From positions 72,267-136,266 of IMG/VR virus record IMGVR_UViG_3300035698_012962: DNA of 64,000 nt; one strand, written 5' to 3'. The notes beneath the pieces were generated by a model that made no database searches, was not told where the DNA came from, and saw nothing but the letters and a program-made list of their open reading frames with translations. Position 1 is the stretch's first letter. Each line of letters opens with the position of its first letter. Source of the DNA: a virus. Positions 3,322-64,000 of this stretch are shown in pieces. Made by a program: the position numbers and the translations under genes.

Positions 3322-3322
3322 A

Positions 3323-3757
3323 TTATCCTGTTATAGTAAATTGTATTGTATCTGTTTCTAGCGTCTTTCCCATTTTAAACTCTAACGTAACATCTATTCT
3401 ATTTCTATCTATATTTTCTGGTGATAAATCTACATCTATATTTTCTATTACGATATAAGGTAACCATTTTTTAATAGCACTATCTATTGAATCAAATACT
3501 CTATCTGAGAAATTTTCATCATTAATTTGTTCAAACATTAATTTATGAAGATCTGTACCAAAATCAGAGTGTATTATTCTCTCACCCTTTCTAGTTTGTA
3601 ATAAATTTCTTAAATTTGATTTGGCTTGCTCTATTGTTGTGTAGTTAATATCGAAATATGAACGATTACCTCTTTCAATGGGAAGTTTTAATCCTAGTCC
3701 GTAATCACCAAATTCGGTAGTATCAACTACATTCTTTCTTCCTATTTCGTAAGCCAT
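3323..3757 (-). CDS. Baseplate protein, gp25/GPW-like
   Basis: NLRNLLQTRKGERIIHSDFGTDL...KWLPYI signature; next to the wedge gene. Confidence 0.9.
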   Translation of the reverse strand: MAYEIGRKNVVDTTEFGDYGLGLKLPIERGNRSYFDINYTTIEQAKSNLRNLLQTRKGERIIHSDFGTDLHKLMFEQINDENFSDRVFDSIDSAIKKWLPYIVIENIDVDLSPENIDRNRIDVTLEFKMGKTLETDTIQFTITG

Positions 3758-3761
3758 TTAT

Positions 3762-4391
3762 TTATTTCTTTTTATTCATATGTTTCATTAATTCTGAGTA
3801 ATCTCTTGTTAATGCCTTTATAACTGGCTGTGTATTCGGATCGTTAATATCAACAGTCCTACCAGAGTGAGTTGAAGAAGGAATCATAGATGCTTTAGAA
3901 AACTCACCATATCCTAATTTTTGTGCTAAATCTCCCTGTCCATTTGAACTTCTACCTGCTACACTATTTACATTACTTGAATTTACACTAATTGTACGTT
4001 CATCTGTTTCAAACGGTATAGTAGAATCATACCCACCCGCCATTTGTCCTGGTTTATAATTAGATGCAGTTTCATTTAACATTTTATTAATCATAGGATC
4101 TTTACTAAAATTCTTTTCCTGTTCTCTATGAGTGTTCAGTGCTGCTTCCGCTTTATCGAACGGATCTTCAATTTCATCTAATTGTGTTTGTTTAGATGGA
4201 GTAGTATTGCTTGAAGTTACAGTTACTTTTTTAGTTTCCTTCAAAATTCTCTTTTCTGCTTTCTTTACTTCAAATTTAACCACTTCTTTAACTAATTTTG
4301 GAAGATTCTTTTTAATCTCTTCTTTAATTAGTATTTGTATAGCTTCTAATAACTTATCAGTATTAATTTTATTTTTTTTACCAGTATTCAT
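3762..4391 (-). CDS. Hypothetical late-region protein
   Basis: 209 aa ORF ending ALTRDYSELMK; TATTTATA motif upstream. Confidence 0.7.
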   Translation of the reverse strand: MNTGKKNKINTDKLLEAIQILIKEEIKKNLPKLVKEVVKFEVKKAEKRILKETKKVTVTSSNTTPSKQTQLDEIEDPFDKAEAALNTHREQEKNFSKDPMINKMLNETASNYKPGQMAGGYDSTIPFETDERTISVNSSNVNSVAGRSSNGQGDLAQKLGYGEFSKASMIPSSTHSGRTVDINDPNTQPVIKALTRDYSELMKHMNKKK

Positions 4392-4448
4392 TTTATTAAT
4401 ATTTTGTTTGTACTATATAAATATAAAAAACATAAAAAATGGATAAAA

Positions 4449-5027
4449 TCATTTAACCATATAACCAGTCCAAAAAATAATACCTGGACCCGGAGTGCCA
4501 AATGGTGGATATAAAGAAGTAGTCGTTATTAATCCTGATACGGTTTGAAGATGTGCCTGTGCTATAATAATAAAATTATCTAACCATCCTTCAACATTTT
4601 GTGTAGGTAGTGTAGGTAAGTCAATTGTCCACTGTCCTGGATTGACTATTGTGTGTGAAATAATTCCTATATTGGAAAATGAACCTGGAGCTGGTATCCA
4701 AGGGATTCCTGTTCCTGGTGGTGATTTAGGTGAGGGAAATGTTGCACCAATTCCTCCTGTCCAATAACTCATAACTGCATTTCCTAAATTTCGTAATAAG
4801 GGTCCTTGGTTTGGATTTCGCTGTTGTATTAATAATGTACCATTCACTATTGTAGACATTATTTCAGTATTTCCTTTTTGTAGTGGTACGTAGTTTACCA
4901 TATCGTATCCTCTACGGATGCAACTATCATATTCACTTACAAACTTACGAACATAATCATCTACTGAAACAGAATTTGGATTCTGTTGTAGTTGTGTCAT
5001 TCGTTGTTTAAAGATTTGCCATGACAT
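4449..5027 (-). CDS. Hypothetical baseplate-region protein
   Basis: 192 aa Pro/Gly-rich ORF directly after the spike-like gene. Confidence 0.65.
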   Translation of the reverse strand: MSWQIFKQRMTQLQQNPNSVSVDDYVRKFVSEYDSCIRRGYDMVNYVPLQKGNTEIMSTIVNGTLLIQQRNPNQGPLLRNLGNAVMSYWTGGIGATFPSPKSPPGTGIPWIPAPGSFSNIGIISHTIVNPGQWTIDLPTLPTQNVEGWLDNFIIIAQAHLQTVSGLITTTSLYPPFGTPGPGIIFWTGYMVK

Positions 5028-5028
5028 T

Positions 5029-6297
5029 TTAAGAAGTTTTATTCTGTTTACTTAACATTGTTCTTAATTTAGATTTTATATTTCTAAATTGTGTTTGATT
5101 TAATGGGGCAACGGATGTTGGCCCTGAAGGGGTAGCGTATGATTGTTTAAGAATAGCATCAATCATGTCCGACATCAAATCTAATAAAGTATCACCCAAT
5201 ACCACAGGTTCTAATCCCTTATTACCCAAATTGATCTTACCGTTACCAGTATTAAGAAATATGTTTTTATCGTTTGTAATAATATCAATATTATCTTTTA
5301 CTTCACCAAAAATACCACCTCTTAGATCAAATGAGAAATTGCTATCACTTATTATCCCTATATTCCCCTTTGAATAGAATAACGTTTCAGCACTTCTAGA
5401 TGAAAAAATTAATCTACCAGATGAGAGGATAACTTGATCACCTTTCAGTGTGTTTGGGTAATTTTTAAATGAATTAGGTTTGGTTTTAAAATCACTATTG
5501 AAGTTTTTATCAACAGTACCAGGAATAAAATTAACAATTCTACTTCCAGATGTTATCCATATAGAAGTACCATCTCTATTCACATCTTCTGTTGTTATAT
5601 CACCTATTAGCTTATCATTTTTAGAAAGAGAACTTTCGCTATTTCTAATTAAGATAGATGGATTAAAATCTTTCTTTGATTTTCCACCTTCATACCCATT
5701 AAATCTAATTGATTGTCCAAATCGGCTTTCTAATAAAACATCTCCTTCGAATAACTCCAATCTATGTATTTTTTCATCACCTTTAAACTTATCACCTAAT
5801 ACATTGTCTTTATTATTTTTTACTGGATTATTTCTTGGTATACCTGTTTTACTATTTTTTGAGTAAGATGGGATTGGATTTGGGGTAGGTTCATTAAATT
5901 CCTTTGCATCCTTTAATGATTCTAAAAGAGTAGAATCTGCTGTAACATTTGGAGTATTGTGTGAGAAAATTACTTTATAGTAGAAATCTCCCGATACTTC
6001 AATTAATTCAACTATTTCGTTTTTTAAAGGTAGTCGAATGAAGTTTCTATCATATGGGAATGCAATGTCAAAGTTATTTTCATCAATAACTCCCTGTGAT
6101 ATGTGTGAGAATCGAATTGCTCCAATATAATTTGTTCCTTTTGGTAAGGTATCATTTTCTACGTCTAAATCTGGGATAATATCATTATACTCATCAATAT
6201 TTAGAATAATATCGTTTACTACACCTAATTTATTAGATTTAGAATGAGAAGGAGTTTGGGATAGATTGGTAGATATATTTGAAATACTTTTTATCAT
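5029..6297 (-). CDS. Baseplate hub/spike protein (gp5/gpV-like)
   Basis: LPLKNEIV, EGD..LESRFGQSIRF, beta-rich C-terminus, INLG...EPVVLGD, TPSGPT. Confidence 0.7.
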   Translation of the reverse strand: MIKSISNISTNLSQTPSHSKSNKLGVVNDIILNIDEYNDIIPDLDVENDTLPKGTNYIGAIRFSHISQGVIDENNFDIAFPYDRNFIRLPLKNEIVELIEVSGDFYYKVIFSHNTPNVTADSTLLESLKDAKEFNEPTPNPIPSYSKNSKTGIPRNNPVKNNKDNVLGDKFKGDEKIHRLELFEGDVLLESRFGQSIRFNGYEGGKSKKDFNPSILIRNSESSLSKNDKLIGDITTEDVNRDGTSIWITSGSRIVNFIPGTVDKNFNSDFKTKPNSFKNYPNTLKGDQVILSSGRLIFSSRSAETLFYSKGNIGIISDSNFSFDLRGGIFGEVKDNIDIITNDKNIFLNTGNGKINLGNKGLEPVVLGDTLLDLMSDMIDAILKQSYATPSGPTSVAPLNQTQFRNIKSKLRTMLSKQNKTS

Positions 6298-6689
6298 TAT
6301 TCTATTTCAAATTTCTTTTTTAGGGAATTTACTTCACTTTCAAATACTTCTACTTCATTATTAATTCTTAATTCTTCAACACTATCGAGTAATTGCTTCT
6401 TTTCATCTTCTGTTAATATATTACTACCCTCATCTACCTTATTGGTAACAGATTGAATCTTTTGTGCGATTTGAGCTAATTTGATTAATTGCTCATCGTT
6501 TTTTACAGCCTCTTTCATTAAATCACTAATCAATGGAAGTAAATTAAGTAAATCTGCTTTCTCTACTATTTTAAGACGTACCTCGTCTATAAAAGAATTG
6601 ATTTTTATTTTTTTCTGTACTTGGTTAGTGTAAATATCTTCGAATAAATCTGATAGTTTTTTTCCCTTAAATAATGTATAATCTTCCAT
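6297..6689 (-). CDS. Hypothetical helical protein
   Basis: 130 aa ORF coupled to the spike gene; TATTTATA motif upstream. Confidence 0.7.
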   Translation of the reverse strand: MEDYTLFKGKKLSDLFEDIYTNQVQKKIKINSFIDEVRLKIVEKADLLNLLPLISDLMKEAVKNDEQLIKLAQIAQKIQSVTNKVDEGSNILTEDEKKQLLDSVEELRINNEVEVFESEVNSLKKKFEIE

Positions 6690-6733
6690 AATATAGTTAT
6701 CCCTTTAACTATAAATATATAAAGAAATTATTT

Positions 6734-7459
6734 TCAGTACCAAAACCCGTTTTCTTCTGTATCGCTTATATCACCATTTTCAAAGAAGTCACTCATTATC
6801 TGTTGATTATATTCTTTCATTACTTTAATAACCTTTGTAATGTAGTGAGTTTTAACACCCGTCATTTCTCTGATAAGAAGATATAAATGTTTTTTATTGA
6901 AGTTTTCTACATATTTAGATCTTCTTAATAACTCTAATATAGAATCCGCGATTTGCATATCTCTCTTTTTGATAAAGATTGAGTTTAGATTTGCTTCCCA
7001 AAAATCTAATATAATGTGTTTTAGTTCTTGGTATTCATCACTTAATTCTTGTTCATCAAAATCATTTTCAATATCCCAATACACCGGCATTTCCGATATA
7101 TGAGTAAGTTTCTTGACCTTTTTATAGCCCTTCATATTACTCATCGTTAAATGATTTCTTGCAATAACCGTGAAGTATGAAAAGGCCTTTCCCTTCCCCT
7201 CCTCATACATATGAATTTTTTCAATTAACTGTGAAACAATTTCTGCTTTACTGTCTTCAACATCCGTTTCTAAATAAGAAGTGGATGACTTGAATGTATG
7301 ATATGCATTTTCTGCTAATTTTTCAAATGGGTATTGAATATACTCATTATATATTTTATTTTTCTTAGCTCTATCATTTGTATTATTATACCGTATTATA
7401 GCTTCTTCTGTCTCTTTTGTAAAGTAATTTTTACTCTTTTTCTTTTTCGTTTTCGTCAT
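6734..7459 (-). CDS. Phage sigma factor, T4 gp55 (late sigma)-like
   Basis: NYFTKETEEAI...KLAEN...GKAFSYFTVIARN resembles the region-2 AF(A/S)YFT motif; start placed at MTKTKK. Confidence 0.65.
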   Translation of the reverse strand: MTKTKKKKSKNYFTKETEEAIIRYNNTNDRAKKNKIYNEYIQYPFEKLAENAYHTFKSSTSYLETDVEDSKAEIVSQLIEKIHMYEEGKGKAFSYFTVIARNHLTMSNMKGYKKVKKLTHISEMPVYWDIENDFDEQELSDEYQELKHIILDFWEANLNSIFIKKRDMQIADSILELLRRSKYVENFNKKHLYLLIREMTGVKTHYITKVIKVMKEYNQQIMSDFFENGDISDTEENGFWY

Positions 7460-7727
7460 AAATTGTAGTATTTCCACTGATTAATTTGTAATAAAATTGA
7501 ATCATCTCTTTAAGTTGTGTAAAGATAGTTCCAACTTCATCGTCTTTTTCAAACATTTGTTGATTATCAATCTCTCGTAAGTCTGATAGTAATTTATTAA
7601 TTAATACAAAAATTCGAATACGATCTTCTTCGTACGTTTCTATTTTCTTTATAGAATTCCAACATGCATATGTTAGTACTAAATTAATTATCATTGAAAT
7701 GATTAATACGATTACAATTGTTTCCAT
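7431..7727 (-). CDS. Small membrane-anchored protein
   Basis: N-terminal hydrophobic helix; FEKDDEVG motif. Confidence 0.65.
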   Translation of the reverse strand: METIVIVLIISMIINLVLTYACWNSIKKIETYEEDRIRIFVLINKLLSDLREIDNQQMFEKDDEVGTIFTQLKEMIQFYYKLISGNTTIYDENEKEKE

Positions 7728-7736
7728 ATTCTTTGT

Positions 7737-8291
7737 TTAAAGGTTAAATGAATATCCACTAAAGTTATGTAGATATTCTGTTATTGAGGTTCCATTTCCA
7801 TCTTGTGATACTTCACCATATTGTAAGTATCTACGTGTTCGATATGGTCCCAGTAAATGTGCTGCTGCCAATATTCCGCTTTTTGTTATTTGATTTCCGT
7901 TTATAACAGATCCATCATATTGGTAAATGAAATCTTCTAATATTTCTTTATTATGATTTAAAAGAGTGATCATTACTTCATCTTGCAATAAAGAATTATT
8001 AAGGAACTCGTATCGTGTAATATCATAACCTAGTCGTTTAATTAATGAAAAGGAAAACTGATATTTACCCATATACCCAAATCTATTAATTACATAATGT
8101 CTATTATTAGATTCTTTATATGCTATCGCTGTTAAAAAATCATTTAGACCAGGAGGTGGTGGCAACTCTTTTATTTCATCTATATATACCACTTTAGTTT
8201 CAGTTGGTATATAGTGATTAATCTTTTTTAATGATATTCCTGATAAATTTGCTATTAAAAATATTAATACAAATGTTATTTTAGTTTTCAT
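7737..8291 (-). CDS. Lysozyme-like/lytic transglycosylase with N-terminal signal anchor
   Basis: AIAYKES (catalytic Glu), GYMGKYQF, AAAHLLG. Confidence 0.7.
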   Translation of the reverse strand: MKTKITFVLIFLIANLSGISLKKINHYIPTETKVVYIDEIKELPPPPGLNDFLTAIAYKESNNRHYVINRFGYMGKYQFSFSLIKRLGYDITRYEFLNNSLLQDEVMITLLNHNKEILEDFIYQYDGSVINGNQITKSGILAAAHLLGPYRTRRYLQYGEVSQDGNGTSITEYLHNFSGYSFNL

Positions 8292-8322
8292 TAGTTTTAT
8301 ATTAAGTTAGTATTAGTATAGA

Positions 8323-8785
8323 TTATGCATCTCCACCTTCACCCCAGTATAATTCAGAAATTTCAGATGGATCAGCTTTTTTATTTATTGATTTTTTTTC
8401 TTTAATCTTTTCAATTCGGTTTTTTAAATTAACAGAATATTCATCTTTATCAATAATATTATTAATATACAACATATCTAACAAAGAGTCAATTATTGCA
8501 CCATAAAAAACTAAAGTTGTTTGTAATACTTTAATTTGTTTCTCATCCATTTAATAAAAATTTGGTTTTTTCTACAAAATCTTCTTCATCCTCATCATCT
8601 CCAAATGATTTTCTTATACTTGAATTTGCATATCCTACTGAATACGCAAGTCGCATACACATCCTCTTAAATTCTTTTATATCCATATCAATAGGTACTT
8701 CAAATTTAATTTTCGTAGCTTCCCTGTTATCATTAGATTGTACCTCATATGATAGTATACATTTTTCTTCTTTATAATAATTCAT
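8323..8785 (-). CDS. Two small hypothetical proteins (8323..8550, 8543..8785)
   Basis: Overlapping start/stop packing with neighbours. Confidence 0.6.
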
Positions 8786-9530
8786 AATTTCCTGTTTTCA
8801 TTAGTTTAGTAGCATGTTTGTACTTTATATACATCGTCGTATCATCATCCACATTTTTAATCATAACTTTTTCGTTTCTACCATAAGTATTAGTTTTTTC
8901 AATTTGTGGATTATAACGTACTAAATCATCTGTGATTAACAACCCATCCAAATGCCCAATCTCATGTTGAACTACTACAGATTCAAGTAAACCTTCGTCC
9001 TTCAATAATTCATTTCCACCTTGTTTCCATTTAGTAGAATCTGGGCCGAATTCAATTATACCCAAATTATCTGTTTTAATAGTTATATGAGAAACCCTCA
9101 TTGTTCGTTTTGGTTTTTTAATTGTCTTTGGTATAGATAAGCAAGATTCTACATATACGATTCGCTCTCCAGCAGTATCCGTACTCACATGGCCCCATTT
9201 AACAATTGTAGGGTTAATAAGAACCAATGGTTCTTTTACGTTTACAATACATGCTCTATGTGGAACTCCTATTTGATTTGCTGAAAGACCTAACCCTCCT
9301 TCTTTTATTAAAGTAACAAACAACTCTGCAGTTACCTTATCCATTTCATCTTTAGTCATTTCCGATTCTTCTACCTTTTGTTTTAGTATAGAAGTATCTG
9401 TTGTGATTTGTCTAGGTGTAGTATTTTCTACAACTTCTTTTGATAAATACTCTAACCCTTCATTGGCTTGGTTAGGCACATTATCTGATATGTTTATATC
9501 TTCATCCATTTCTTGTATTTTATTTTGCAT
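8772..9530 (-). CDS. def: Peptide deformylase
   Basis: GLGLSANQ, ESCLS and QHEIGHLDG motifs. Confidence 0.9.
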   Translation of the reverse strand: MQNKIQEMDEDINISDNVPNQANEGLEYLSKEVVENTTPRQITTDTSILKQKVEESEMTKDEMDKVTAELFVTLIKEGGLGLSANQIGVPHRACIVNVKEPLVLINPTIVKWGHVSTDTAGERIVYVESCLSIPKTIKKPKRTMRVSHITIKTDNLGIIEFGPDSTKWKQGGNELLKDEGLLESVVVQHEIGHLDGLLITDDLVRYNPQIEKTNTYGRNEKVMIKNVDDDTTMYIKYKHATKLMKTGNYELL

Positions 9531-9535
9531 ATTAT

Positions 9536-10105
9536 TTATTTTTGATTTAGTGCCTTTGCTATTTTATTTCCTAATTTTTTATATTCATCTGTTTGTTCCA
9601 ATCCTACTTGTAAATGTCTAAGTGAATTTTTAGATGGGTCTATACCTGTTATTTTCGGTGGTAATAATTTCCAAATAAAATCTTTTTGTTCTTGTGTAAT
9701 TCCATCTTTATTTATCACTTCAGATGCTGTGATAGGTGGAGTTCGAGGCCAATTCCTCTCCGAGCCAACTCTTAATCTAGCTCTAATTACTTTTTTGTCT
9801 TGAAAATAATCATCTGTAGCTTTGTTGAATTCTTCAATTTCTAATAAGTTTTGTTCTAATATAGTATCTATTAATTTACCAGCTAGTTGTCTTCGTACTT
9901 CTTTTAACAATGCTTCTCTTTCATGTGGGTGATGGTGTGGATGATTCATTGTGTCATCTATAGTTACCTCTGCTACAATTTCGGTTGATTGTGGTTTTGA
10001 AGGTGGTTGATAGGTTGGACGATATACACCCTCAAAATCAGCTATTGATGCGTTGTAATTTTTAATCCACTCTTTATCTATATTGTTAAAATTTAAAAGT
10101 GCCAT
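9536..10105 (-). CDS. Hypothetical protein
   Basis: 189 aa ORF between thyA and def. Confidence 0.65.
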   Translation of the reverse strand: MALLNFNNIDKEWIKNYNASIADFEGVYRPTYQPPSKPQSTEIVAEVTIDDTMNHPHHHPHEREALLKEVRRQLAGKLIDTILEQNLLEIEEFNKATDDYFQDKKVIRARLRVGSERNWPRTPPITASEVINKDGITQEQKDFIWKLLPPKITGIDPSKNSLRHLQVGLEQTDEYKKLGNKIAKALNQK

Positions 10106-55594: not shown

Positions 55595-56209
55595 TTAGAA
55601 TAATTTGCTATTGTCGAATCCTATTTCTTCATTGTCTCCTATTACGACACCATCTCCGATTTTGGAATTGTATCCTATTTCGGTATAATCTCCTATTACG
55701 ACACCATCCCCTATTTCGCTATAGGCTCCTATTTCTGAATCGTCTCCTATTACGACACCATCCCCTATTTCGCTATAGGCTCCTATTTCTGAATCGTCTC
55801 CTATTTTCGAGTGACCTCCTATTAAGGCATTGGTTCCTATTTCGCTATAGGCTCCTATTGTGGAACCGTATCCTATTGTGGAACCGTAGCCTATTTTGGC
55901 ATTATCTCCTATTTTCGAGCGCCATCCTATTTTCGAGCGGCATCCTATTTTCGAGCGCCATCCTATTTTCGAATTATCTCCTATTACGACACCATCTCCG
56001 ATTTCGCTATAGGCTCCTATTTTAACATTGGCTCCTATTGCGGTATATTTTCCTATTTCTGCATTGTCTCCTATTTTAACATGATTTTCAATTACGACCC
56101 CATAATATATTTTTATATTCCTTTCTTGGAACTCCTCTTTCAATTCAGATAAGTCATTGTATTTGAAAGAAGTCCATTCATCTTTAGTTTTCAGGTATAA
56201 TGTTTTCAT
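55595..56209 (-). CDS. Hexapeptide-repeat (left-handed beta-helix) protein, paralogue 1
   Basis: Tandem IGxxxx repeats after MKTLYLKTKDEWTSFKY. Confidence 0.85.
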   Translation of the reverse strand: MKTLYLKTKDEWTSFKYNDLSELKEEFQERNIKIYYGVVIENHVKIGDNAEIGKYTAIGANVKIGAYSEIGDGVVIGDNSKIGWRSKIGCRSKIGWRSKIGDNAKIGYGSTIGYGSTIGAYSEIGTNALIGGHSKIGDDSEIGAYSEIGDGVVIGDDSEIGAYSEIGDGVVIGDYTEIGYNSKIGDGVVIGDNEEIGFDNSKLF

Positions 56210-56216
56210 AATTGTT

Positions 56217-56930
56217 TTATTTAAGTGAATTTTCTAATTCCGAATTGGGTTCTATTTCTGCATTGGTTCCTATTTCGGCTCTGTCTCCTATTGTGGAACC
56301 GTATCCTATTGTGGAACCGTAGCCTATTTCGCTATAGGCTCCTATTTCTGAATCGTCTCCTATTTTAACATTGGCTCCTATTGCGGTATATTTTCCTATT
56401 AAGGCATTATCTCCTATTTTAACATAGGCCCCTATTAAGGCATTGGTTCCTATTTCGCTATAGGCTCCTATTGTGGAACCGTATCCTATTGTGGAACCGT
56501 AGCCTATTTTGGCTCTATCTCCTATTTTCGAGTGACCTCCTATTTCGGCACCATCCCCTATTTCGCTATAGGCTCCTATTTCTGAATCGTCTCCTATTAC
56601 GACATATCTTCCTATTTCTGAATCGTCTCCTATTTTCGAATTAAATCCTATTTTAACATAGTCCCCTATTAAGGCATTATCTCCTATTTTAACATTGGCT
56701 CCTATTGCAGTATATTTTCCTATTTCTGCATTGTCTCCTATTTTAACATTGGCTCCTATTGCGGTATATTTTCCTATTTCTGCATTGTCTCCTATTTTAA
56801 CATGATTTTCAATTACGACCCTGTAATCTATTTTTATATTCCTTTCTTGGAACTCATCTTCCAGTTCAGATAACTCATTGTATTTGAAAGAAGTCCATTC
56901 ATCTTTGGTTTTTAAGTAAATTGTTTTCAT
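56217..56930 (-). CDS. Hexapeptide-repeat protein, paralogue 2
   Basis: Near-identical N-terminus; different repeat order; ends EPNSELENSLK. Confidence 0.85.
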   Translation of the reverse strand: MKTIYLKTKDEWTSFKYNELSELEDEFQERNIKIDYRVVIENHVKIGDNAEIGKYTAIGANVKIGDNAEIGKYTAIGANVKIGDNALIGDYVKIGFNSKIGDDSEIGRYVVIGDDSEIGAYSEIGDGAEIGGHSKIGDRAKIGYGSTIGYGSTIGAYSEIGTNALIGAYVKIGDNALIGKYTAIGANVKIGDDSEIGAYSEIGYGSTIGYGSTIGDRAEIGTNAEIEPNSELENSLK

Positions 56931-56936
56931 TTTGAT

Positions 56937-57022
56937 TTGGATTAGGTTATCATTAACTCAACACTTATAATGTAGTGATTAATTTACTTAATGTCAAGTT
57001 CCTTATTTAATTTTCTTGTTCA
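56937..57022. repeat. 86-bp direct repeat B (promoter-leader copy 8 plus EQEN* gene end)
   Basis: Identical to 55294-55379; supplies the last codons of the R-M gene. Confidence 0.95.
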
Positions 57023-60000
57023 CTCAACCCATACAACTCATACACCATCTGGTCTATATGTTTATCAATTCTATCTATCTCTGCTTTCAGGGCGTTAATC
57101 TCGGTTTTCTTTTTGTTGAAGTAGGTAAGCCACTCGGCTTCTTCTTCTAAGCTGAGTTTGACCTTCTTCTTTTTGAGCTCCGCCAAAAAGCCAACAGAGT
57201 CTAGACCCAACCAATTATCAAAACCATTTCCTTCTTCAAGTTGAAACTTAGAATTAAAAAATAACGCGGTAGTATTTGTCAAACCTTGTATCTCAATCAA
57301 TAGTCTTGGTAATTCGTAACAATTCGTGATGATTGATGCATAAGTGGCACTCCTATGGTCGTTCTCGAACGGGACTTTGACAATTGGTAAGTCCTTGATT
57401 TTTGATGTACTGAGCTGATTATAAAAACCATCATTAATGTACTTCTGGATCAGTGAACTGTTCAGCACAGCATTTGTGAACATTACATACTCGGCCTTTG
57501 AAGTACTTTCAGGTAGTTGGGAGAAGTATCCAGCGTTTGGTTTTGGGTAGATATAATTTTGTCCTCCTGCACCGCCACCTGATGAATAATGCTCACCCAG
57601 TGATAGAGTAAATCGGTCCATATTTTTTGTATTGACCAAAATTTTTGGTCCCTCAAACGGAATAGATTCTCTTTCATACAAAGGCAACCACCATTTTTTC
57701 CGTCTCATAATCTTTTGTACGGCACCAGCGGAGCTATACTTTGCCTTAATCTCATCTAGCGTAAAGTTCTCGAAGTCTTCCAAGGTTATTACCTCATCAT
57801 CACCGATTGTTGTAGAGCGGTTCAAAAGAATCGGTGCGAATTCCATTAGGTAATCTTTTATTATTCCTTGAAGCTTTTCAGAACCAACGTAGATTACATA
57901 AGTATCTGTCTCTTCAACAACCCATTTTTGCAAACTTTCTGTTTTGAGGTATTCTTTGATGTACTTTTGTTCTACGCCATTGATAGGAAGCCAATCGTTG
58001 TTGATTTTGAGCAAAACATCCGCACCTGAATGTTTAATATCAATCCCTTCTCTTAGGATGAAAATCCCACGACCAAGTTGATCTTCTTGCGCCAACCCTG
58101 CAACAATATGTTTTTTGGTTATTTTATCTGAGCCAGTCACTAGACCTTGCGAAACATCAAATAGGTCACCTAACGGTTTAATTGTGTCCGACAATTGCAG
58201 CTTTAGTTGGTAAAAATCCCAAGGTTTAACACCGCTTAAGTCTAACTCCCCTACATTAATTTTTCGAGGGTTTCTATTGATTATAAAGTCTAATTCAGTA
58301 AGCTTATTTTCACTAACAGAATAGAAATCAAATTGGTAATCAAGGGAGGCTTCCGTGACTTTCCTTTGAGTTAAAATTAAACTTGTTGTACCTGCATCTT
58401 CAAAAACTTTCGTTTCCAAAAAGTCAACGATTCCTTCAATTTTCGAATTAGACAAAACAGATTCTCGCACATTATTTGACCAATCTGCGTTAATGAACTC
58501 CCGTGGTACGATTAAACTCTGAAACCCCCCATCGGACATCAAATCAAGACCATGCTTGATGAAGAAATAATAGGTGTTTGACCGTCTACGATAAAAGTCA
58601 TTCCATTTAGGAATTCGCTTAAGGTCATCGAATATTTTCGTGTGACCCTTTTCTCCAACATAAGGAGGATTCCCAATCACCACATCAAAGCCGCCGTTTT
58701 CGAATACAGATGGAAATTCGGCTTCCCAATCGAAGGCTTTGTCACCGGCCACCTCGTAATCGTCGATCAGCGAGTTTCCGCACTTTATGTTATGGTTCAT
58801 CGAGGTGAGTTTTCTTCCGGGTTCAGCTGTTCTGAGCCAGAGGCTCAGCTTGGCGATCTCCACTGATTCTTCGTTTATATCTACCCCAAACAGGTTCCGA
58901 TCCAGTATCTGATTTTCTATATCTTGCAGCACCATCGACTCTCCCAGCAGCTTGGCCTGCAGTTCATCCACAGAGGTGTGCTCGGCAATCAAAAACTCCA
59001 GCGCCTGATTTAAAAAAGCCCCGCTCCCGCAAGCAGGATCGCAAATGGTAAGTCCCAGAAGCCACTCTCTGTATTTCTCTAGTTTGGCGAGTAGTTCTTT
59101 TTTGGTTTTCTTTTGACGGTTCGAGCGGTAGTCTTCGTCGTCAATATCCAGTGCGGCTTTCTGTTCCTCGCATAATTTCCCGACGGTATGCTCCACAATA
59201 TACTTAGTGATATACTTAGGCGTGTAAAACACACCATCTTTTTTACGGCGGGTTTTGGAGGTGTCCACCTCTTCCCCTTTCAGCTCCGCATTAATCTCTT
59301 CAATCTCGTTCAGCGAATGTTCAAAAATATGCCCCAATATATTTACATCTACTTCACTGTCAAAATCATATTCACTTAGCCTATCTGTATATTTGTATAG
59401 AACTTCATCCGAGATGCTAAGTTCATCCAGGAGTTCATCTTGTTGAAATAATCCCCCATTATATGCAAATACCTGATATTCTTTCCCTTTGTATCCCTTA
59501 TTTAAATAATCAAAGTTCTTTTTAAATCGTTCATACAAGGACACCTCAACATCGTATTCATCTCTTAACTCTGTCCATTCTCTAATGATTTTACGATTGA
59601 AGTTGGGGGGTATCAATCCACGATCCTCTGCAAAAAAGATGAATAGAAAGCGATCCAGCAATTTTTGTGTCTTTTGGAATAGGATGAGCTTATCGTGGTC
59701 TGGATTTCTTTCTATAAGGTCTTGATGCAACTCCATTCTAAAGTCTGAATAGTTTTTGTAAAGTTTCTTGGTGACCTGCTCCTCTTCAACGAGAGAAGAA
59801 TCTTTGATCCTTTTGGGTATATCCTTTTTGAAATTCGAATACTCCAAACAGAGCCATAATACTTTAAATCTATCTTTGGACAACTCGAATAAATCAAACT
59901 CTTCATAATCAACAGCTTTATCAATATAGAATCTCAACTTTTCGTAATTAGAAACGATCACATAGCTTGCAAACGATTGCTTACTTTGGTATCCAAAAGC

Positions 60001-60351
60001 TTGATTTACAATTTTGTCAAGATTTACAGTATTAGTTCCTTTTAATTCTATAACTGCTTTTACTTTTCCGTCGTCTAATAGAGTTCCGTCTGCTTTCCCT
60101 GAGTCCGTTTCATTTTTTTTTTCTGTGACCAAATTATGATTTGGGTCAGGATGCTGGGTATATCCTAAAACCTTCACAAACAAATCATTTAGAAACCTGC
60201 TTTGATATTTCTCCTCGTTTGCATCCCGTATTATTTGTTGTCGCTCCTTGTTATGAAAGAGCTTTTTAAATTCTTCCCAGGCTTTATCCACCTGTTTTTT
60301 TTCAATTCCCGAAACATATTTATTAAGTACCGATTTTTGGAATAGTGACAT
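57007..60351 (-). CDS. Type IIG restriction-modification enzyme (fused REase-MTase-TRD)
   Basis: KADG...IELKG nuclease motif, GVFYTP, CDPACGSGAFL, GVDIN, IGNPPY, IDQMVYELYGL; visibly more GC-rich than flanks. Confidence 0.92.
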   Translation of the reverse strand: MSLFQKSVLNKYVSGIEKKQVDKAWEEFKKLFHNKERQQIIRDANEEKYQSRFLNDLFVKVLGYTQHPDPNHNLVTEKKNETDSGKADGTLLDDGKVKAVIELKGTNTVNLDKIVNQAFGYQSKQSFASYVIVSNYEKLRFYIDKAVDYEEFDLFELSKDRFKVLWLCLEYSNFKKDIPKRIKDSSLVEEEQVTKKLYKNYSDFRMELHQDLIERNPDHDKLILFQKTQKLLDRFLFIFFAEDRGLIPPNFNRKIIREWTELRDEYDVEVSLYERFKKNFDYLNKGYKGKEYQVFAYNGGLFQQDELLDELSISDEVLYKYTDRLSEYDFDSEVDVNILGHIFEHSLNEIEEINAELKGEEVDTSKTRRKKDGVFYTPKYITKYIVEHTVGKLCEEQKAALDIDDEDYRSNRQKKTKKELLAKLEKYREWLLGLTICDPACGSGAFLNQALEFLIAEHTSVDELQAKLLGESMVLQDIENQILDRNLFGVDINEESVEIAKLSLWLRTAEPGRKLTSMNHNIKCGNSLIDDYEVAGDKAFDWEAEFPSVFENGGFDVVIGNPPYVGEKGHTKIFDDLKRIPKWNDFYRRRSNTYYFFIKHGLDLMSDGGFQSLIVPREFINADWSNNVRESVLSNSKIEGIVDFLETKVFEDAGTTSLILTQRKVTEASLDYQFDFYSVSENKLTELDFIINRNPRKINVGELDLSGVKPWDFYQLKLQLSDTIKPLGDLFDVSQGLVTGSDKITKKHIVAGLAQEDQLGRGIFILREGIDIKHSGADVLLKINNDWLPINGVEQKYIKEYLKTESLQKWVVEETDTYVIYVGSEKLQGIIKDYLMEFAPILLNRSTTIGDDEVITLEDFENFTLDEIKAKYSSAGAVQKIMRRKKWWLPLYERESIPFEGPKILVNTKNMDRFTLSLGEHYSSGGGAGGQNYIYPKPNAGYFSQLPESTSKAEYVMFTNAVLNSSLIQKYINDGFYNQLSTSKIKDLPIVKVPFENDHRSATYASIITNCYELPRLLIEIQGLTNTTALFFNSKFQLEEGNGFDNWLGLDSVGFLAELKKKKVKLSLEEEAEWLTYFNKKKTEINALKAEIDRIDKHIDQMVYELYGLSEQEN

Positions 60352-60827: not shown

Positions 60828-61266
60828 TCATAAATAATAAGACTGTCTTAGAAATTCACGCATCGCATCAACTACTTCTTTGTCATTTTCAATTAACTTG
60901 TCTTTCACAAATATATCTCCATTAGCACATAATTTTATTATTTCGGGTGTTCCGCCTGTGGAGAATACGATCTCGTTAGCTTCTTCTTTGGTTCCTAACG
61001 TTGATATATTCTCATTACTCATTAACTCTATTTTATTTTTCATTGTTTTATTTAGTTTTGGTTGTACCCTTTTCTGCTTGTAATTCCTTTCCTATATCAT
61101 CAAGTAAATAAATTATGTCCTTTGCCCATTTAATATCCGTTTGTATTCTTTGTACTTGAACATCAAAACCCAACCTTTTCGCTGTTTCAATATCGTGATA
61201 GCTTTTTTGTTTAATATCTCTATACTCTTCTTTTTTCTGTTCAATTAATTCTAATGCTTTTTTCAT
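60828..61266 (-). CDS. Two small hypothetical proteins (60828..61043, 61048..61266)
   Basis: Co-oriented ORFs coupled to paralogue 3. Confidence 0.6.
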
Positions 61267-61958
61267 AATGATTTAAGTGAATTTTCTAATTCCGATATCA
61301 TATCAATGTAGGTTTCATACTCTTTTATTTGTGCATCAGAATAATCATACTCTTTAGCTATGTATTCATAATGCATTTGCCAAAACTTAATGCTACGAAT
61401 TTCACATCCGATATGAATAACTCCAGTGCTATACCAATTTACATGGTGCCTTGTACCTGATATTTTGATGGAGTGATTTATTACCGAATTGGGTTCTATT
61501 TCTGCATTGGTTCCTATTTCGGCTCTGTCTCCTATTTCGGCTCTGTCTCCGATTTTGGAATTGTATCCTATTACGACACTGTCTCCGATTTTGGAATTGT
61601 ATCCTATTTCTGAATTGTCTCCTATTTCGGATCTGTCTCCTATTGTGGAACCGTATCCTATTGTGGAACCGTAGCCTATTTCGGCTCTGTCTCCTATTAC
61701 GACACTGTCTCCGATTTTGGAATTGTATCCTATTTCGGATCTGTCTCCTATTTCGGCACCATCCCCTATTTCGCTATAGGCTCCTATTTCTGAATCGTCT
61801 CCTATTGCGACACTGTTTCCTATTTTGGCGTTGGCTCCTATTACGACCCCATAATCTATTTTTATATTCCTTTTTTCAAACTCCTCTTTCAATTCAGATA
61901 AGTCATTGTATTTGAAAGAAGTCCATTCATCTTTAGTTTTCAGGTATAATGTTTTCAT
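61263..61958 (-). CDS. Hexapeptide-repeat protein, paralogue 3, with extra C-terminal domain
   Basis: IGxxxx repeats, then a ...IHIGCEIRSIKFW... domain absent from paralogues 1 and 2. Confidence 0.85.
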   Translation of the reverse strand: MKTLYLKTKDEWTSFKYNDLSELKEEFEKRNIKIDYGVVIGANAKIGNSVAIGDDSEIGAYSEIGDGAEIGDRSEIGYNSKIGDSVVIGDRAEIGYGSTIGYGSTIGDRSEIGDNSEIGYNSKIGDSVVIGYNSKIGDRAEIGDRAEIGTNAEIEPNSVINHSIKISGTRHHVNWYSTGVIHIGCEIRSIKFWQMHYEYIAKEYDYSDAQIKEYETYIDMISELENSLKSL

Positions 61959-62558: not shown

Positions 62559-62809
62559 CTCTGTATGGGTTTGTTTTGTATTGACTACTATAATATAACA
62601 GTTATATGAATCAATGTCAATTATTATTTGCGTTAGTCTATCAAAAGGTTTTTTCATCAGAAAAATTGGTGCCGATATGTGAAAGGGTTAGACACGGAAA
62701 AATGAAAAAAGTTTTCCGAACATTTACGTGAAACCAGTCCCCCCCATGTATTACACGGTGTACGATTGAGTATAGGATAGTGTCTATGATTGTGTATACG
62801 ATTCCGCGG

Positions 62810-63066
62810 TGAGCAGAGGAAGTTGCGTGAGTGTGCTGAGCAGAGGAAGTTGCGTGAGTGTGCTGAGTGGAGAAGTGGAGAAGTGGAGAAGTGGAGAAGT
62901 GGAGAAGTGGAGAAGTGGAGAAGTGGAGAAGTGGAGTGAGTGTGCTGAGTGGAGAAGTTGCGTGAGTGTGCTGAGCAGAGGAAGTGGAGTGAGTGGAGTG
63001 AGTGTGCTGAGCAGATGAAGTTGCGTGAGTGTGCTGAGTGGAGTGAGTGGAGTAGGTTGGGAGTTG
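62810..63066. repeat. Purine-rich compound tandem repeat
   Basis: 27-mer tgagcagaggaagttgcgtgagtgtgc x2, gtggagaa x8 (62867-62930), then shuffled sub-units. Confidence 0.95.
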
Positions 63067-63285: not shown

Positions 63286-63374
63286 TCTTAGTGGTTTAGT
63301 TCTATTGGAGACAGTGGCAGATATTTTTATACCCGAAGTCTTTTTGATGAGTCCAGAGAGGAGATCACCAGTCG

Positions 63375-63611
63375 CTATGCTTTGGGCGCATTAAAAATTT
63401 GGTTATCTCTTAATCTAATAAGTTCTCTAATCTTTTCAGCAGTTTCTTCCACTTCATCAGAGTAACTGCATATTATATCGCCATTTTCTTTTTTAAGTAC
63501 CATAGGTAAAGAATTAGCGTATAGTTCAAATAGTTTTTTGAATAACTGTTTTCTGTGAGGGTCATTTAAAATGGCCTCTCTTTGTTTTTTAAAATAAGTC
63601 TGGTTTTTCAT
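63375..63611 (-). CDS. Hypothetical protein
   Basis: 78 aa ORF just below an attC-like site. Confidence 0.6.
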   Translation of the reverse strand: MKNQTYFKKQREAILNDPHRKQLFKKLFELYANSLPMVLKKENGDIICSYSDEVEETAEKIRELIRLRDNQIFNAPKA

Positions 63612-63635
63612 TTTGTTGTTTATTTACCGAAAAAA

Positions 63636-63700
63636 CTAATGGTAACACTGTATAAAATCCATTGAAAAAACGGCTCTTATACCCATACGTTGTAGGCAAT
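63636..63700 (+). mobile_element. attC-like recombination site 1
   Basis: GGTAAC-act-GTATAAAATCCATT...AACGGCTCTTATAC-ccatac-GTTGTAGGC: imperfect inverted repeat bounded by AAC/GTT with asymmetric spacers. Confidence 0.6.
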
Positions 63701-63942
63701 TAGCCTAACTTTTTGCAAAAGAATATCTCCCATTCTTTACAGGAAGTATTGCAACCATCACAAGGTTGGTAGCTTTTATCATCAGCTAACTGTTCGCTTT
63801 GCCCTACAACATTAGGTATAGAGCAGTTTTTTACTCGCTCCTGTTCGCATTCATTCCACACCTTCAATAGTGCCTGTTGTACGCTTCTGCTATTTGGATA
63901 AGCAGTTTCAGCCTGTATCTCTTTTATTCTTTCAGTTGTCAT
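63700..63942 (-). CDS. Hypothetical protein reading through an attC-like arm
   Basis: 80 aa; VKNCSIPNVVG is encoded by the inverted-repeat arm at 63801-63834. Confidence 0.65.
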   Translation of the reverse strand: MTTERIKEIQAETAYPNSRSVQQALLKVWNECEQERVKNCSIPNVVGQSEQLADDKSYQPCDGCNTSCKEWEIFFCKKLG

Positions 63943-64000
63943 ATAATAAAGTTTAGTGTTTCAAATCCGTAAAAAACCGACTCCATACCCACGGGCGTTA
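63799..64000 (+). mobile_element. attC-like recombination site 2 with long loop
   Basis: CTACAAC-atta-GGTATAGAGcAGTTTTTTAC (to 63834) is an imperfect inverted repeat of GTAAAAAACCgaCTCCATACC-cacgggc-GTT (63969-63999). Confidence 0.6.

Follow-up and report, generated by a model that had tools for sequence, protein, structure and literature searches.

Probable edge of an integron-like array of swappable gene modules at the end of a salt-lake phage contig

Positions 63,636-64,000 of the window, the 64,000-nucleotide stretch of viral DNA analysed here, form the terminal ~360 bases of a large salt-lake phage contig and contain two hairpin sites and a small gene piece. We consider it somewhat probable, at roughly 55%, that an integron-like array of swappable modules has broken off here and left its edge in this stretch; arrays of this kind are widespread among Bacteroidota phages and prophages. 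In such an array, hairpin sites that can fold as single strands and carry invariant AAC and GTT triplets at their base would alternate with gene modules, each module starting with GTT and a short segment b and ending with its complement b' and AAC, and modules would swap between genomes through breakage and joining at or beside the triplets. The exchange would most likely proceed by site-specific recombination guided by structure, in the manner of integron attC sites, and the candidate enzyme, encoded off this contig, would be either a host factor or a small Xer-like tyrosine recombinase of the type found next to related arrays. In the subfamily represented here, the hairpin loop bears a conserved leader and start codon followed by some 45 N-terminal codons, and the frame passes the 3' arm and GTT (a valine codon) into the next module, which is the source of the C-terminus and often ends on a TAA stop that belongs to the TAAC of the following site. 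Since the frame crosses GTT into the next module, swapping there would recombine the N- and C-terminal halves of small proteins. This integron-like logic is supported because offset complementarity recurs in relatives and because breaks in similarity and in assembly graphs fall on the triplets. The helix and its covariation, the offset complementarity, the triplet breakpoints, and the conserved frame are demonstrated, and site-specific recombination, its enzyme, the strand that folds, and any function of the leader are inferred.

The larger hairpin, site 2, extends on the plus strand from AAC at 63808-63810 to GTT at 63997-63999, is about 192 nt long, and has a loop of 134 nt. Its arms, 63811-63834 and 63969-63996, match exactly over 9 nt and can be extended to about 25 nt with gaps, and its right spacer exceeds the left by 3 nt. 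On the minus strand, the 5' arm (M1, 63969..63999) opens with AAC (63999-63997) and a spacer, continues with GGGTATGGAG and an unpaired T, and closes with CGG and TTTTTTAC; locus L106, an Aequorivita prophage, has the same arm letter for letter. Within the loop, a leader with a putative role near the start codon (63943..63968, minus strand) starts with GGATTTGAAACACTAAA and ends at the ATG of ORF80 (63700..63942, minus strand, 80 aa). The N-terminal domain of ORF80, conserved and helical, takes up codons 1-34 (MTTERIKEIQ...WNECEQ); codons 37-45 (VKNCSIPNV) belong to the 3' arm of site 2 (M2, 63808..63834, minus strand), which lies in frame as GTA AAA AAC ... AAT GTT with the GTT at 63810-63808, and the final 35 aa are Cys-rich. 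In the protein Atlas, ORF80 has a model pLDDT of 0.44 and no family.

Downstream of this arm lies the B module (63692..63807, minus strand), which encodes the C-terminal part of ORF80. At its ends stand b, GTAGGGCAA (63807-63799), and b', TTGCCTAC (63699-63692), whose complementarity adds 8 further pairs to the triplets and includes one indel. Written with the triplets, and apart from a single indel, GTTGTAGGCAA (63689-63699) reverse-complements TTGCCCTACAAC (63799-63810). The compact hairpin that follows, site 1 (63644..63691, minus strand, 48 nt), has AAC at 63691-63689, GTT at 63646-63644, and a 14-bp stem pairing 63682-63669 with 63663-63650, including two G.T pairs, around the minus-strand loop TTTTC; a repeat search recovers the same stems on the plus strand as GTAT.../...ATAC at 63650-63663 and 63669-63682 (14 nt, 79%). 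On the minus strand a 6-nt spacer follows AAC and a 3-nt spacer precedes GTT, and across the window the spacers are unequal, 6 versus 3-4 nt. The 5' half of site 1, M3, is a direct repeat of M1. Locus L106 holds a similar module with the same b/b' as the B module, and site 1 is not kept there. The next small gene downstream, ORF78 (63375..63611, minus strand), starts 33 nt past the GTT of the compact site, with no fitting b' AAC after its stop. A fourth, inverted arm inside ORF78 was considered and rejected, as site 1 accounts for M3 and ORF78 has no following b' AAC. Searches of ORF80 and ORF78 against Pfam and PHROGs gave nothing at E<=0.1 except one weak PHROG.

An earlier, sequence-only reading had described two imperfect inverted repeats bounded by AAC and GTT with GTAT/ATAC inner boxes, and both coordinates and letters hold. 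The right spacer is 3 nt longer at both sites, as it had stated, and the loop that it put at about 135 nt measures 134 nt. The offset complementarity with one indel was likewise correctly seen and recurs in related arrays with cassette-specific sequences. An ORF starting in the loop and reading through the arm is found here and in 16/19 family members, and the core boxes, CTACAAC and GTTGTAG in the window, deviate from RYYYAAC/GTTRRRY, as noted then.

Taken alone, the window yields weak hairpin folds, with z values of -1.3 to -1.6. Folded as DNA, 63655-64000 reaches z -1.64, a value matched by 4/100 shuffles; site 1 folds on the minus strand at -4.6 kcal/mol (z -1.34, 22/200 shuffles equally good) and gives no fold on the plus strand; and the anchored inverted-repeat score of the window is 32 against a shuffle maximum of 30. 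The reality of the hairpin family is carried by comparative evidence, which is decisive. Over 16 related sites, the site-2 helix comprises 27 pairs, 13 of them with compensatory changes, and 94.7% of its cells are paired, compared with 82.2% in shuffles (0/500 reach the observed level) and 39-59% with the partner slid. AAC and GTT are invariant and paired in 16/16 aligned sites, the 5' arm has a single conserved T left unpaired on the sense strand, and the inner stem covaries. Extra nucleotides number 22 on the 5' arm versus 8 on the 3' arm (17 sites), and all sites share one orientation relative to genes.

The reading frame is conserved along with the helix. In 16/19 family sites the loop ORF stays open across the arm and keeps GTT in frame (codon 44-50), and among those 16, b'AAC lies 1-25 nt past the stop in 13 and AAC overlaps TAA in 7. 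A loop that bears a conserved leader, a start codon, and ~45 N-terminal codons in frame through GTT seems to be novel. The leader also stands upstream of unrelated N-terminal modules, at 11 viral loci and 10 genome loci; the 17-base leader scan of genome contigs gave 70 matches, about the chance expectation, of which only 10 passed the arm profile. The N-terminal domain of ORF80 is present in 37 viral loci and in Cellulophaga phage phi13:2. Arm and leader are absent at 31/34 loci encoding this domain, a condition that the sequence-only reading had listed among those counting against it.

Beyond the window, offset b/b' pairs of 6-17 nt, specific to each module, occur in L004, L048, L046, L106, the complete related phage G002, and Polaribacter phage P12002L. 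Examples include AGCATT/AATGCT in L004, AGCGGTTCGTTGCCCT/AGGGCAATGACCGCT in L048, a 14-nt pair flanking gp37 of P12002L, and at least 6 successive units in L046. When a pair is counted as GTT+b...b'+AAC with at least 6 further pairs, the G002 array contains 21 against 6.4 in shuffles (maximum 12), L046 contains 19 against 4.7, and L004 contains 28 against 10.2, while the remainder of G002 contains 58 against 46.9. The site P12002L_attC1 and the compact sites in L048/G002, L004, and L107 share the same layout and the same 11-nt loop.

Breaks in similarity lie at or close to the triplets. The 136-kb source record resembles L003/L004 solely at 63808-64000, with 91% identity over 193 bp, and the match ends at 63808. 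Among nine inter-locus HSPs of at least 175 nt spanning the hairpin core, 6 end at GTT+2 to +7, and the four HSPs of at least 93% identity that no sequence edge truncates begin between AAC-1 and AAC-11. The Logan graph branches at 63688/63689 and 63812 in 4/4 runs and at 63691/63692 in 2/4, and across each graph junction only the triplet (plus AT) is shared. Hairpin cores are common to loci whose left and right flanks both differ. The metagenome graph connects each end of the B module, through branch points, to other hairpin cores, and the summed contig depth of the module is 246-490 versus 17-30 for the backbone. A three-way alignment shows a mosaic, in which arm and leader are L106-like, the loop is L004-like, and the B module is L106-like. 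Breaks are seen on the AAC side, on the GTT side, and even within the core, where the loop is swapped between conserved flanks, a pattern not predicted by canonical integron recombination at G|TT alone.

The proposal that 63690-63997 is one mobile 308-bp cassette does not hold, as the core (63811-63996) and the C-terminal module (63692-63807) are found separately elsewhere. The related expectation that boundaries in relatives fall on the triplets holds for homology and graph breaks at AAC and GTT, and fails insofar as G|TT is not the sole break point. No excision, circle, or inversion joint, including the 308-bp circle or skip joint that had been suggested, was present in contigs of four runs, which cannot reveal rare forms, so the absence of a 308-bp joint says little; the sole joint in these contigs, 62826->62998, falls in a tandem repeat.

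The position of the stretch at a contig end affects how it is to be read. The source record, 136 kb and 63% complete, stops at window position 64000, one base past AAC 63999-63997, and metagenome contigs in runs X3 and X4 extend 5.9 kb past that position. In Logan contigs the terminal 250-310 bases lie on unitigs 6-10x deeper than the phage backbone, and because of this depth 63754-64000 may have been joined to this phage only by misassembly, giving a chimeric contig end. The phage of the window carries T4-like baseplate genes and RNA ligases. An arm-motif search of the whole 136-kb record found copies at the contig end only, the site-2 arm and leader profile returned just two forward copies, also at the contig end, and an anchored AAC...GTT scan gave the M2/M3 pair and one other match at shuffle level; the further sites anticipated in this phage are therefore absent as strong matches elsewhere in the contig. 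The window's own value is limited accordingly to two sites and one module at a possibly chimeric end.

The integrase that had been expected to act on the sites was not found in the 136-kb contig, where searches for tyrosine and serine recombinases (PF00589, PF00239) gave no match, and PF00589 was found in 0/3 related phage genomes, each at least 91% complete. L004 and L106 encode, downstream and on the same strand, homologous recombinases of 267-269 aa, and the short contig L077 has a 157-aa tblastn match at its end, likewise downstream on the same strand. The three are 35-60% identical, small, and Xer-like. Against the integron-integrase model these nearby recombinases score 124-153 bits, with a cut-off of 265, in two stretches that skip the model middle. 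No integron-integrase match above the cut-off occurred in the three host-type genomes carrying family members (0/3), and TIGR02249 at E<=1e-40 was absent from 201 genomes of the family of G006, a search in which the controls also gave no signal.

Which strand folds bears on the best-surviving alternative, which we judge unlikely. It holds that the hairpins form as RNA within the sense transcript and act in processing, stabilisation, or translation control, and that, being conserved blocks, they double as short homologies for Erf-type annealing in a PeSL-like manner, with no site-specific recombinase; the M1:M2 helix would close the loop around the start codon, and the b:b' stems would clamp cistrons, as rRNA processing stalks do. 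Arm mismatches on the sense strand comprise 31 G.T versus 1 A.C, and the sense strand is the better folder in 5/5 sites, an asymmetry and a stability for which an RNA helix accounts no less well than folded DNA. The single orientation of the sites relative to genes and the conservation of the leader beside the start codon also agree with a role in RNA. On the side of homology, G002 has genes for an Erf-like annealing protein and for a NinG/Rap nuclease but none for a tyrosine recombinase, the loop module of the window core has been exchanged between conserved flanks, and Arbiol et al. 2010 (Genome Biol Evol 2:140) showed that PeSLs mediate gene shuffling and mini-circle formation. In phi18:1 and phi18:2, near-identical cultured relatives, the sole clean indel (713 bp) has at its bounds a 71-bp direct repeat that starts directly after a hairpin GTT and includes the gene leader and first codons, and because of this repeat the indel is read as homologous recombination.

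Several observations weigh against this alternative. The junctions share the 3-5 nt triplet region only, with unrelated sequence on one side, which is too little for homologous exchange, and the b/b' pairs are unique to each module, leaving no homology between modules. Ribosomes would open helices that enclose whole translated ORFs or 45 codons, and no RNA role is known for invariant AAC/GTT. Rfam, which contains no attC family, gave zero matches at E<=1 for six related loci and the end of the window, and no sigma-70-type promoter or intrinsic terminator was predicted at the arms and leader on the minus strand, in a scan that does not cover Bacteroidota promoters. Strand evidence also bears on the earlier statement that the ORF is antisense to the site, which turns on the strand taken as bottom and on which the criteria conflict: better sense-strand folding, the G.T wobbles, and the HattCI call for a family member (Qi et al. 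2023) favour it, and the asymmetry of unpaired bases speaks against it, placing the ORF on the top, canonical strand.

Gin/Cin/Hin systems and plasmid shufflons contain invertible segments that swap protein C-termini, and a switch of this type appears very improbable here. A longer imperfect inverted repeat, recovered by repeat search and in the MFE structure, joins 63663-63699 with 63799-63834, and inversion over these 37 nt would flip a 99-nt C-terminal segment of ORF80. As in those systems, the inverted repeat lies at the border of a constant N-terminal and a variable C-terminal coding part, the layout of invertible tail fibres. Unlike them, the record encodes no resolvase, invertase, or tyrosine recombinase, the flipped segment meets a stop within 3 codons in either frame, no strand-changing joint occurs in contigs of the four runs, and relatives arrange the same arms in direct-order chains of one orientation rather than singly as invertible units. 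That the repeats arose by chance, without function, in AT-rich intergenic sequence at the end of a chimeric contig deserves almost no credence despite the weak folds, an anchored score barely above shuffles, and terminal unitigs far deeper than the backbone, as covariation in 16 independent sites, chain logic elsewhere, and a frame kept in 16/19 refute this for the site family. A CRISPR-repeat mimic was considered and dropped, as the paired, covarying architecture does not fit.

A fuller form of the integron-like reading is possible, and we advance it tentatively. The folded site would itself be an expression and protein module, recombination at triplets would build two-part small proteins combinatorially, cores and pieces would be separately mobile, the sense strand would be the substrate, and the enzyme would be Xer-like without the integron-integrase domain, or a host factor. 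If true, this would amount to domain shuffling by a cassette system and would offer a view of how cassette sites and their cargo meet. Cultured members of the family, namely Cellulophaga phages, Polaribacter phage P12002L, and the Aequorivita prophage, make excision, strand choice, and the recombinase testable.

Among known systems, the PeSL cassettes of T4-type phages combine a conserved stem-loop with a leader. Further work on PeSL regulatory cassettes reportedly came from Comeau et al. in 2014. As described by Arbiol et al. 2010, these elements resemble the present sites in flanking small non-essential genes in hyperplastic regions of large myoviruses and in marking module boundaries tied to gene shuffling among related phages. 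They differ in joining a strong sigma-70-like early promoter to a terminator stem-loop, neither of which is predicted here, and in recombining through homology between copies; the arms here are site-specific and covarying, junctions share triplets only, and the helix spans 134 nt of coding sequence.

The closest comparison is with integrons. They are bacterial gene-capture platforms, for which the origin of cassettes and their pairing with attC sites is a standing question. Published phage examples are few: 17 integrase-less clusters with few predicted sites each. For integron-like systems of Bacteroidota phages, our literature search returned Qi et al. 2023 (Front Microbiol 14:1091391) and no paper describing a loop-borne gene start or an Xer-like partner. 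Table S3 of Qi et al. lists attC1 of P12002L, a member of the same site family, as a predicted, HattCI-called attC; in the IntI1 assay this was the sole one of six phage sites without verified recombinants, and attC2 was positive.

Set against the attC criteria of Nivina et al. 2016 (R boxes RYYYAAC / GTTRRRY, length 57-141 bp), the R boxes of the window are unfit, whereas some relatives fit (GCCTAAC in L021; GTTAGGC in G002 and P12002L), and the window sites measure 48 and about 192 nt, with compact relatives at 53-61 nt. With attC sites as the reference, the b/b' stems here are 6-17 nt, compared with 4; the spacers are 4-7 versus 1-4 nt, compared with 5-6 on each arm; attC sites have an L box and 2-3 extrahelical bases (G, T) on one arm, next to which the sites here show a covarying inner stem and one conserved unpaired T; the loop bears a leader, start codon, and N-terminal domain, with the ORF exiting through GTT; and the better-folding strand is the gene sense strand. 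Cores and gene modules here are exchanged separately, with breaks at AAC and GTT, unlike integron cassettes, and in contrast to a complete integron no IntI was found, the relatives' recombinases being without the IntI-specific middle part.

There are also likenesses. Like the phage attC arrays of Qi et al. 2023, the sites are imperfect hairpins defined by structure and not by sequence, with a variable loop; like integron attC sites, they carry AAC and GTT as invariant basal triplets, with a less clear likeness in the unpaired spacers, which differ in length, and in the one unpaired base that is conserved. As in integron arrays, small co-oriented genes are arranged so that the segment following GTT complements the one ahead of the next AAC, similarity breaks at triplets, and arrays in virulent phages occur without an integrase. 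The window would accordingly be a fragment of a much larger phage-borne family, partly caught by standard integron criteria, in which cores and gene modules have separate histories and translation starts and protein domains lie inside the presumed recombination hairpin.

Both genes at the contig end, ORF80 (63942..63700) and ORF78 (63611..63375), read leftwards on the minus strand and have no family in Pfam or PHROG. In gene-strand order, the segment opens with M1, the 5' arm of a large hairpin (AAC at 63999-63997 plus an arm to 63969), followed by a 26-nt leader, the ORF80 ATG with 36 codons, and M2 (63834-63808), an inverted copy of M1 that is translated in frame as VKNCSIPNV and ends in GTT. 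Directly after M2 comes the sequence b, GTAGGGCAA, then the remaining ORF80 codons, and then b', TTGCCTAC, before the AAC at 63691-63689. After this AAC, M3, a direct repeat of M1 on the same strand, forms a compact local hairpin, site 1, ending in GTT at 63646-63644. The sequence-only reading had described these repeats, their boxes and the ORF, and direct inspection with a repeat search locates all of them where it had placed them.

The source virus record spans 136,266 bases, of which the window is the final 64 kb, and is rated 63% complete; position 64000 is the contig end, so sequence past it is unreadable. The window has a GC content of 31%, and its minus strand carries 105 of the 108 ORFs with 60 aa or more. 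For the larger ORFs the matches are T4-like baseplate wedge proteins, RNA and DNA ligases, thymidylate synthase, and QueC-like and Thg1-like enzymes; the source is a large myovirus-type phage, and the runs containing its sequence are labelled salt-lake or lake metagenomes. This phage contig also encodes an Eco57I/MmeI-type fused restriction-modification enzyme of 1114 aa (57007-60351, minus strand; Pfam domains Eco57I, N6_Mtase, MmeI_Mtase and MmeI_hel) and, within 6.5 kb, three PHROG 5353 hexapeptide-repeat (left-handed beta-helix) paralogues (55595-56209, 56217-56930 and 61263-61958, minus strand). An intergenic block of nested tandem repeats occupies 62761-63049, with 8.9 copies of the 8-nt unit AGTGGAGA at 62866-62936 surrounded by 27- and 36-nt units; contig depth peaks at 585 at 62870-62926, and one run holds a 171-nt length variant (joint 62826->62998).

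Taken alone, the in-window fold energies are unimpressive, with z -1.64 for the 346-nt fold and z -1.34 for site 1, on the minus strand only; an anchored repeat scan of the record scores 32 against a shuffle maximum of 30. Comparative sequence evidence from relatives nevertheless confirms the predicted hairpin, weak as it is within the window. Across 16 distinct aligned sites, RNAalifold recovers a long-range M1:M2 helix of 27 pairs, 13 with compensatory changes, and AAC and GTT are invariant. Paired cells amount to 94.7% versus 82.2% in column shuffles (0/500 reach it), and pairing drops to 39-59% when the partners are slid. The leader TTTTTTACGGANTTGAAACAC is present in 11 viral loci; a shorter form gives 70 genome-contig matches, about the number expected by chance, of which 10 also match the arm profile, and nine of these ten contigs are labelled Flavobacteriaceae, Flavobacterium, Aequorivita, Paludibacter or Bacteroidota. 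A full arm-plus-leader match also occurs on a contig labelled Methanosarcinales archaeon MAG (L104), probably a mis-binned phage contig. Unrelated N-terminal sequences follow one common arm and leader across the related loci, with the inverted arm 132-149 nt downstream in most. Sites range from compact (53-61 nt; -21.9 kcal/mol and z -7 for L048:1778-1838) to about 200 nt for the window's type, and some enclose a whole small ORF. The 11-nt compact-site loop TCGTTTTAATG also occurs, on the same strand, in short perfect hairpins of opposite polarity (GTT-stem-loop-stem-AAC) at L044 (~2463 and ~2428), L052:5516, L046:158, L094:7465 and L038:2097, which look like empty modules.

Counting ORFs whose start lies 19-27 nt beyond the arm's TTTAC, 16 of 19 subfamily sites carry a loop ORF in frame through the 3' arm and GTT, at codon 44-50; one of the three misses lies at a contig end and two have an uncertain start or arm. 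Thirteen of these 16 in-frame sites have the best b' AAC 1-25 nt beyond the stop, and seven have an AAC overlapping the TAA stop. The N-terminal 34 residues of ORF80 make up a real protein domain shared by 37 viral loci and Cellulophaga phage phi13:2, its conservation accompanied by synonymous changes. The domain is joined to many different C-termini, often Cys-rich, and also stands alone as a 44-aa protein; arm and leader are absent at 31 of the 34 loci with it.

The sequence after each GTT is complementary to the sequence preceding the next AAC and differs unit by unit: GTAGGGCAA / TTGCCTAC in the window, AGCATT / AATGCT in L004, and a 16-nt and a 13-nt pair in L048. Long b/b' pairs (10-17 nt) flank ORFs. 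L046 holds a series of at least six adjoining units, all on one strand, in which every ORF sits within a pair of its own and a hairpin separates neighbouring units. When GTT+b...b'+AAC was searched for with a minimum of six further pairs, 21 turned up in the array of G002, a complete 39-kb relative of Cellulophaga phages phi17:1 and phi18:1 (shuffles 6.4, maximum 12), 19 versus 4.7 in L046, 28 versus 10.2 in the L004 element and 6 versus 2.6 in the window's last 3 kb; outside the array, G002 gave only 58 versus 46.9.

Breakpoints between loci fall at or next to the triplets. Similarity of the 10-kb loci L003 and L004 to the 136-kb record is confined to 63808-64000 (91% over 193 bp) and stops at the GTT of M2. 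Nine inter-locus HSPs of 175 nt or more span a core; six of them stop at GTT+2 to +7, and three continue into a shared next module. The four HSPs with at least 93% identity that no sequence edge cuts start at AAC-1, -2, -8 and -11. A three-way alignment shows mosaic composition: the window has the arm and leader of L106, an Aequorivita echinoideorum prophage locus, and the loop (the N-terminal module) of L004; all three have M2 in common, and b, the C-terminal module and b' resemble L106. In Logan contigs, other sequence joins before 63689 and after 63812 in four of four metagenome runs, before 63700, immediately beyond the stop codon, in three, and after 63691 in two; at the triplet junctions the joined sequences share only the triplet (plus AT at 63811-63812).

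In run X1 the phage backbone has a summed contig depth of 17-30; depth rises to 246-490 over 63668-63838 and is 177-282 over 63839-64000. The high end depth implies that these samples also contain the modules in other genomes of greater abundance; it also means that shared words may have led the assembler to join the final 250-310 bases to this phage. A unitig of depth 30 (63357-63718) links ORF78 to site 1, b' and the module's first bases. The 77 nt at 63318-63394, covering the ORF78 end and DNA past its stop, have depth 223 versus about 30 beside them, graph branch points at both ends and a GGGTAT-type arm remnant; they look like a further module shared with other genomes.

We put roughly 55% on a reading in which recombination would be guided by hairpin structure and act at the AAC/GTT triplets, with hairpin cores and gene pieces moving as separate modules. 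The sequence-only reading had proposed one integron-like cassette at 63690-63997; its logic is supported by the offset complementarity and the triplet breakpoints, but its details are not, the 308-bp unit consisting of separable modules.

The serious rival, which we consider less likely, resembles PeSLs, the stem-loop regulatory cassettes of T4-type phages (described after Arbiol et al. 2010), and combines RNA structure with homologous recombination. It draws on the wobble bias of the sense strand. Seventeen distinct arm pairs hold 221 Watson-Crick pairs, 31 G.T on the sense strand, 1 A.C and 16 other mismatches, many of the G.T pairs lying at two fixed positions and thus not being independent events; unrelated L046 arms, read by eye, show the same bias, and the sense strand is more stable in all five folding sites. 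Over these pairs the 5' arm has 22 extra nucleotides, a conserved unpaired T among them, and the 3' arm 8.

On whether ORF80 runs antisense to the site, as the sequence-only reading proposed, the criteria point both ways. In the canonical attC bottom strand, extrahelical bases lie on the 3' arm (Nivina et al. 2016), a rule that would make the window plus strand the bottom strand; ORF80 would then be on the top strand, the usual arrangement of cassette genes. Pointing the other way, the sense strand folds better and has all the wobble pairs, and the bottom strand listed for P12002L_attC1 by Qi et al. (2023) is the sense strand of the neighbouring genes.

The missing recombinase likewise favours the PeSL-like rival. 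The 136-kb record has no PF00589 or PF00239 match; of five viral contigs with sites, the three with a completeness of 91-100% lack any PF00589 match, and a 438-aa integrase is encoded on an incomplete one. G002, whose array lies between replication genes and the small terminase, encodes an Erf-like annealing protein, NinG/Rap and three HNH nucleases. 

Some related loci do carry a recombinase. In L004, a record filed as viral, a 7.2-kb element (2178-9367) splits a bacterial gene (615-2177 / 9368-9745) identified by eye, from the split ORF translations, as putative RNase R. The element contains many hairpin-bounded small genes and two DNA methyltransferase-like ORFs (motifs by eye), and terminates with a 267-aa Xer-like tyrosine recombinase. 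In L106 a 269-aa recombinase lies 0.4 kb beyond the gene that bears the site, and in L077 a same-strand homologue with 60% identity lies 1.1 kb downstream. Recombinases of this type score best, below cut-offs, against XerA-type and Xer models, and match the integron-integrase model in two stretches omitting its middle. None in three host-type genomes carrying family members reaches the integron-integrase cut-off, and a search of 201 same-family genomes, run without a positive control, gave no integron integrase at E<=1e-40.

The rival is further favoured by a repeat-bounded indel. One 713-bp segment, located upstream of the small terminase gene, distinguishes Cellulophaga phages phi18:1 (L125:15379-16207) and phi18:2 (L126), which are 99.99% identical; the 71-bp direct repeat bounding it includes the terminase leader and first codons and begins immediately after the GTT of a perfect AAC-stem-loop-stem-GTT hairpin. 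The PeSL-like reading and structure-guided recombination at the triplets are not mutually exclusive. In the contigs of four runs, a data type that loses rare forms, no joint skips 63690-63997 or flips a segment.

For comparison with published systems, attC features were defined after Nivina et al. (2016) and Cury et al. (2016). A literature search found no description of gene starts inside such hairpins or of an Xer-like partner for them. Seventeen attC clusters without an integrase are described in phages, including the virulent Polaribacter phage P12002L, by Qi et al. (2023), who also show recombination by IntI1 at five of six tested phage sites, the exception being P12002L_attC1. The attC1 primer insert maps to about 30036 of the P12002L record, where attC1 has the same layout and 11-nt loop, TCGTTTTAATG, as the compact sites of L048/G002, L004 and L107, and gp37 of P12002L lies between the halves of a 14-nt b/b' pair. 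By this likeness, the site family is partly known already, as attC.
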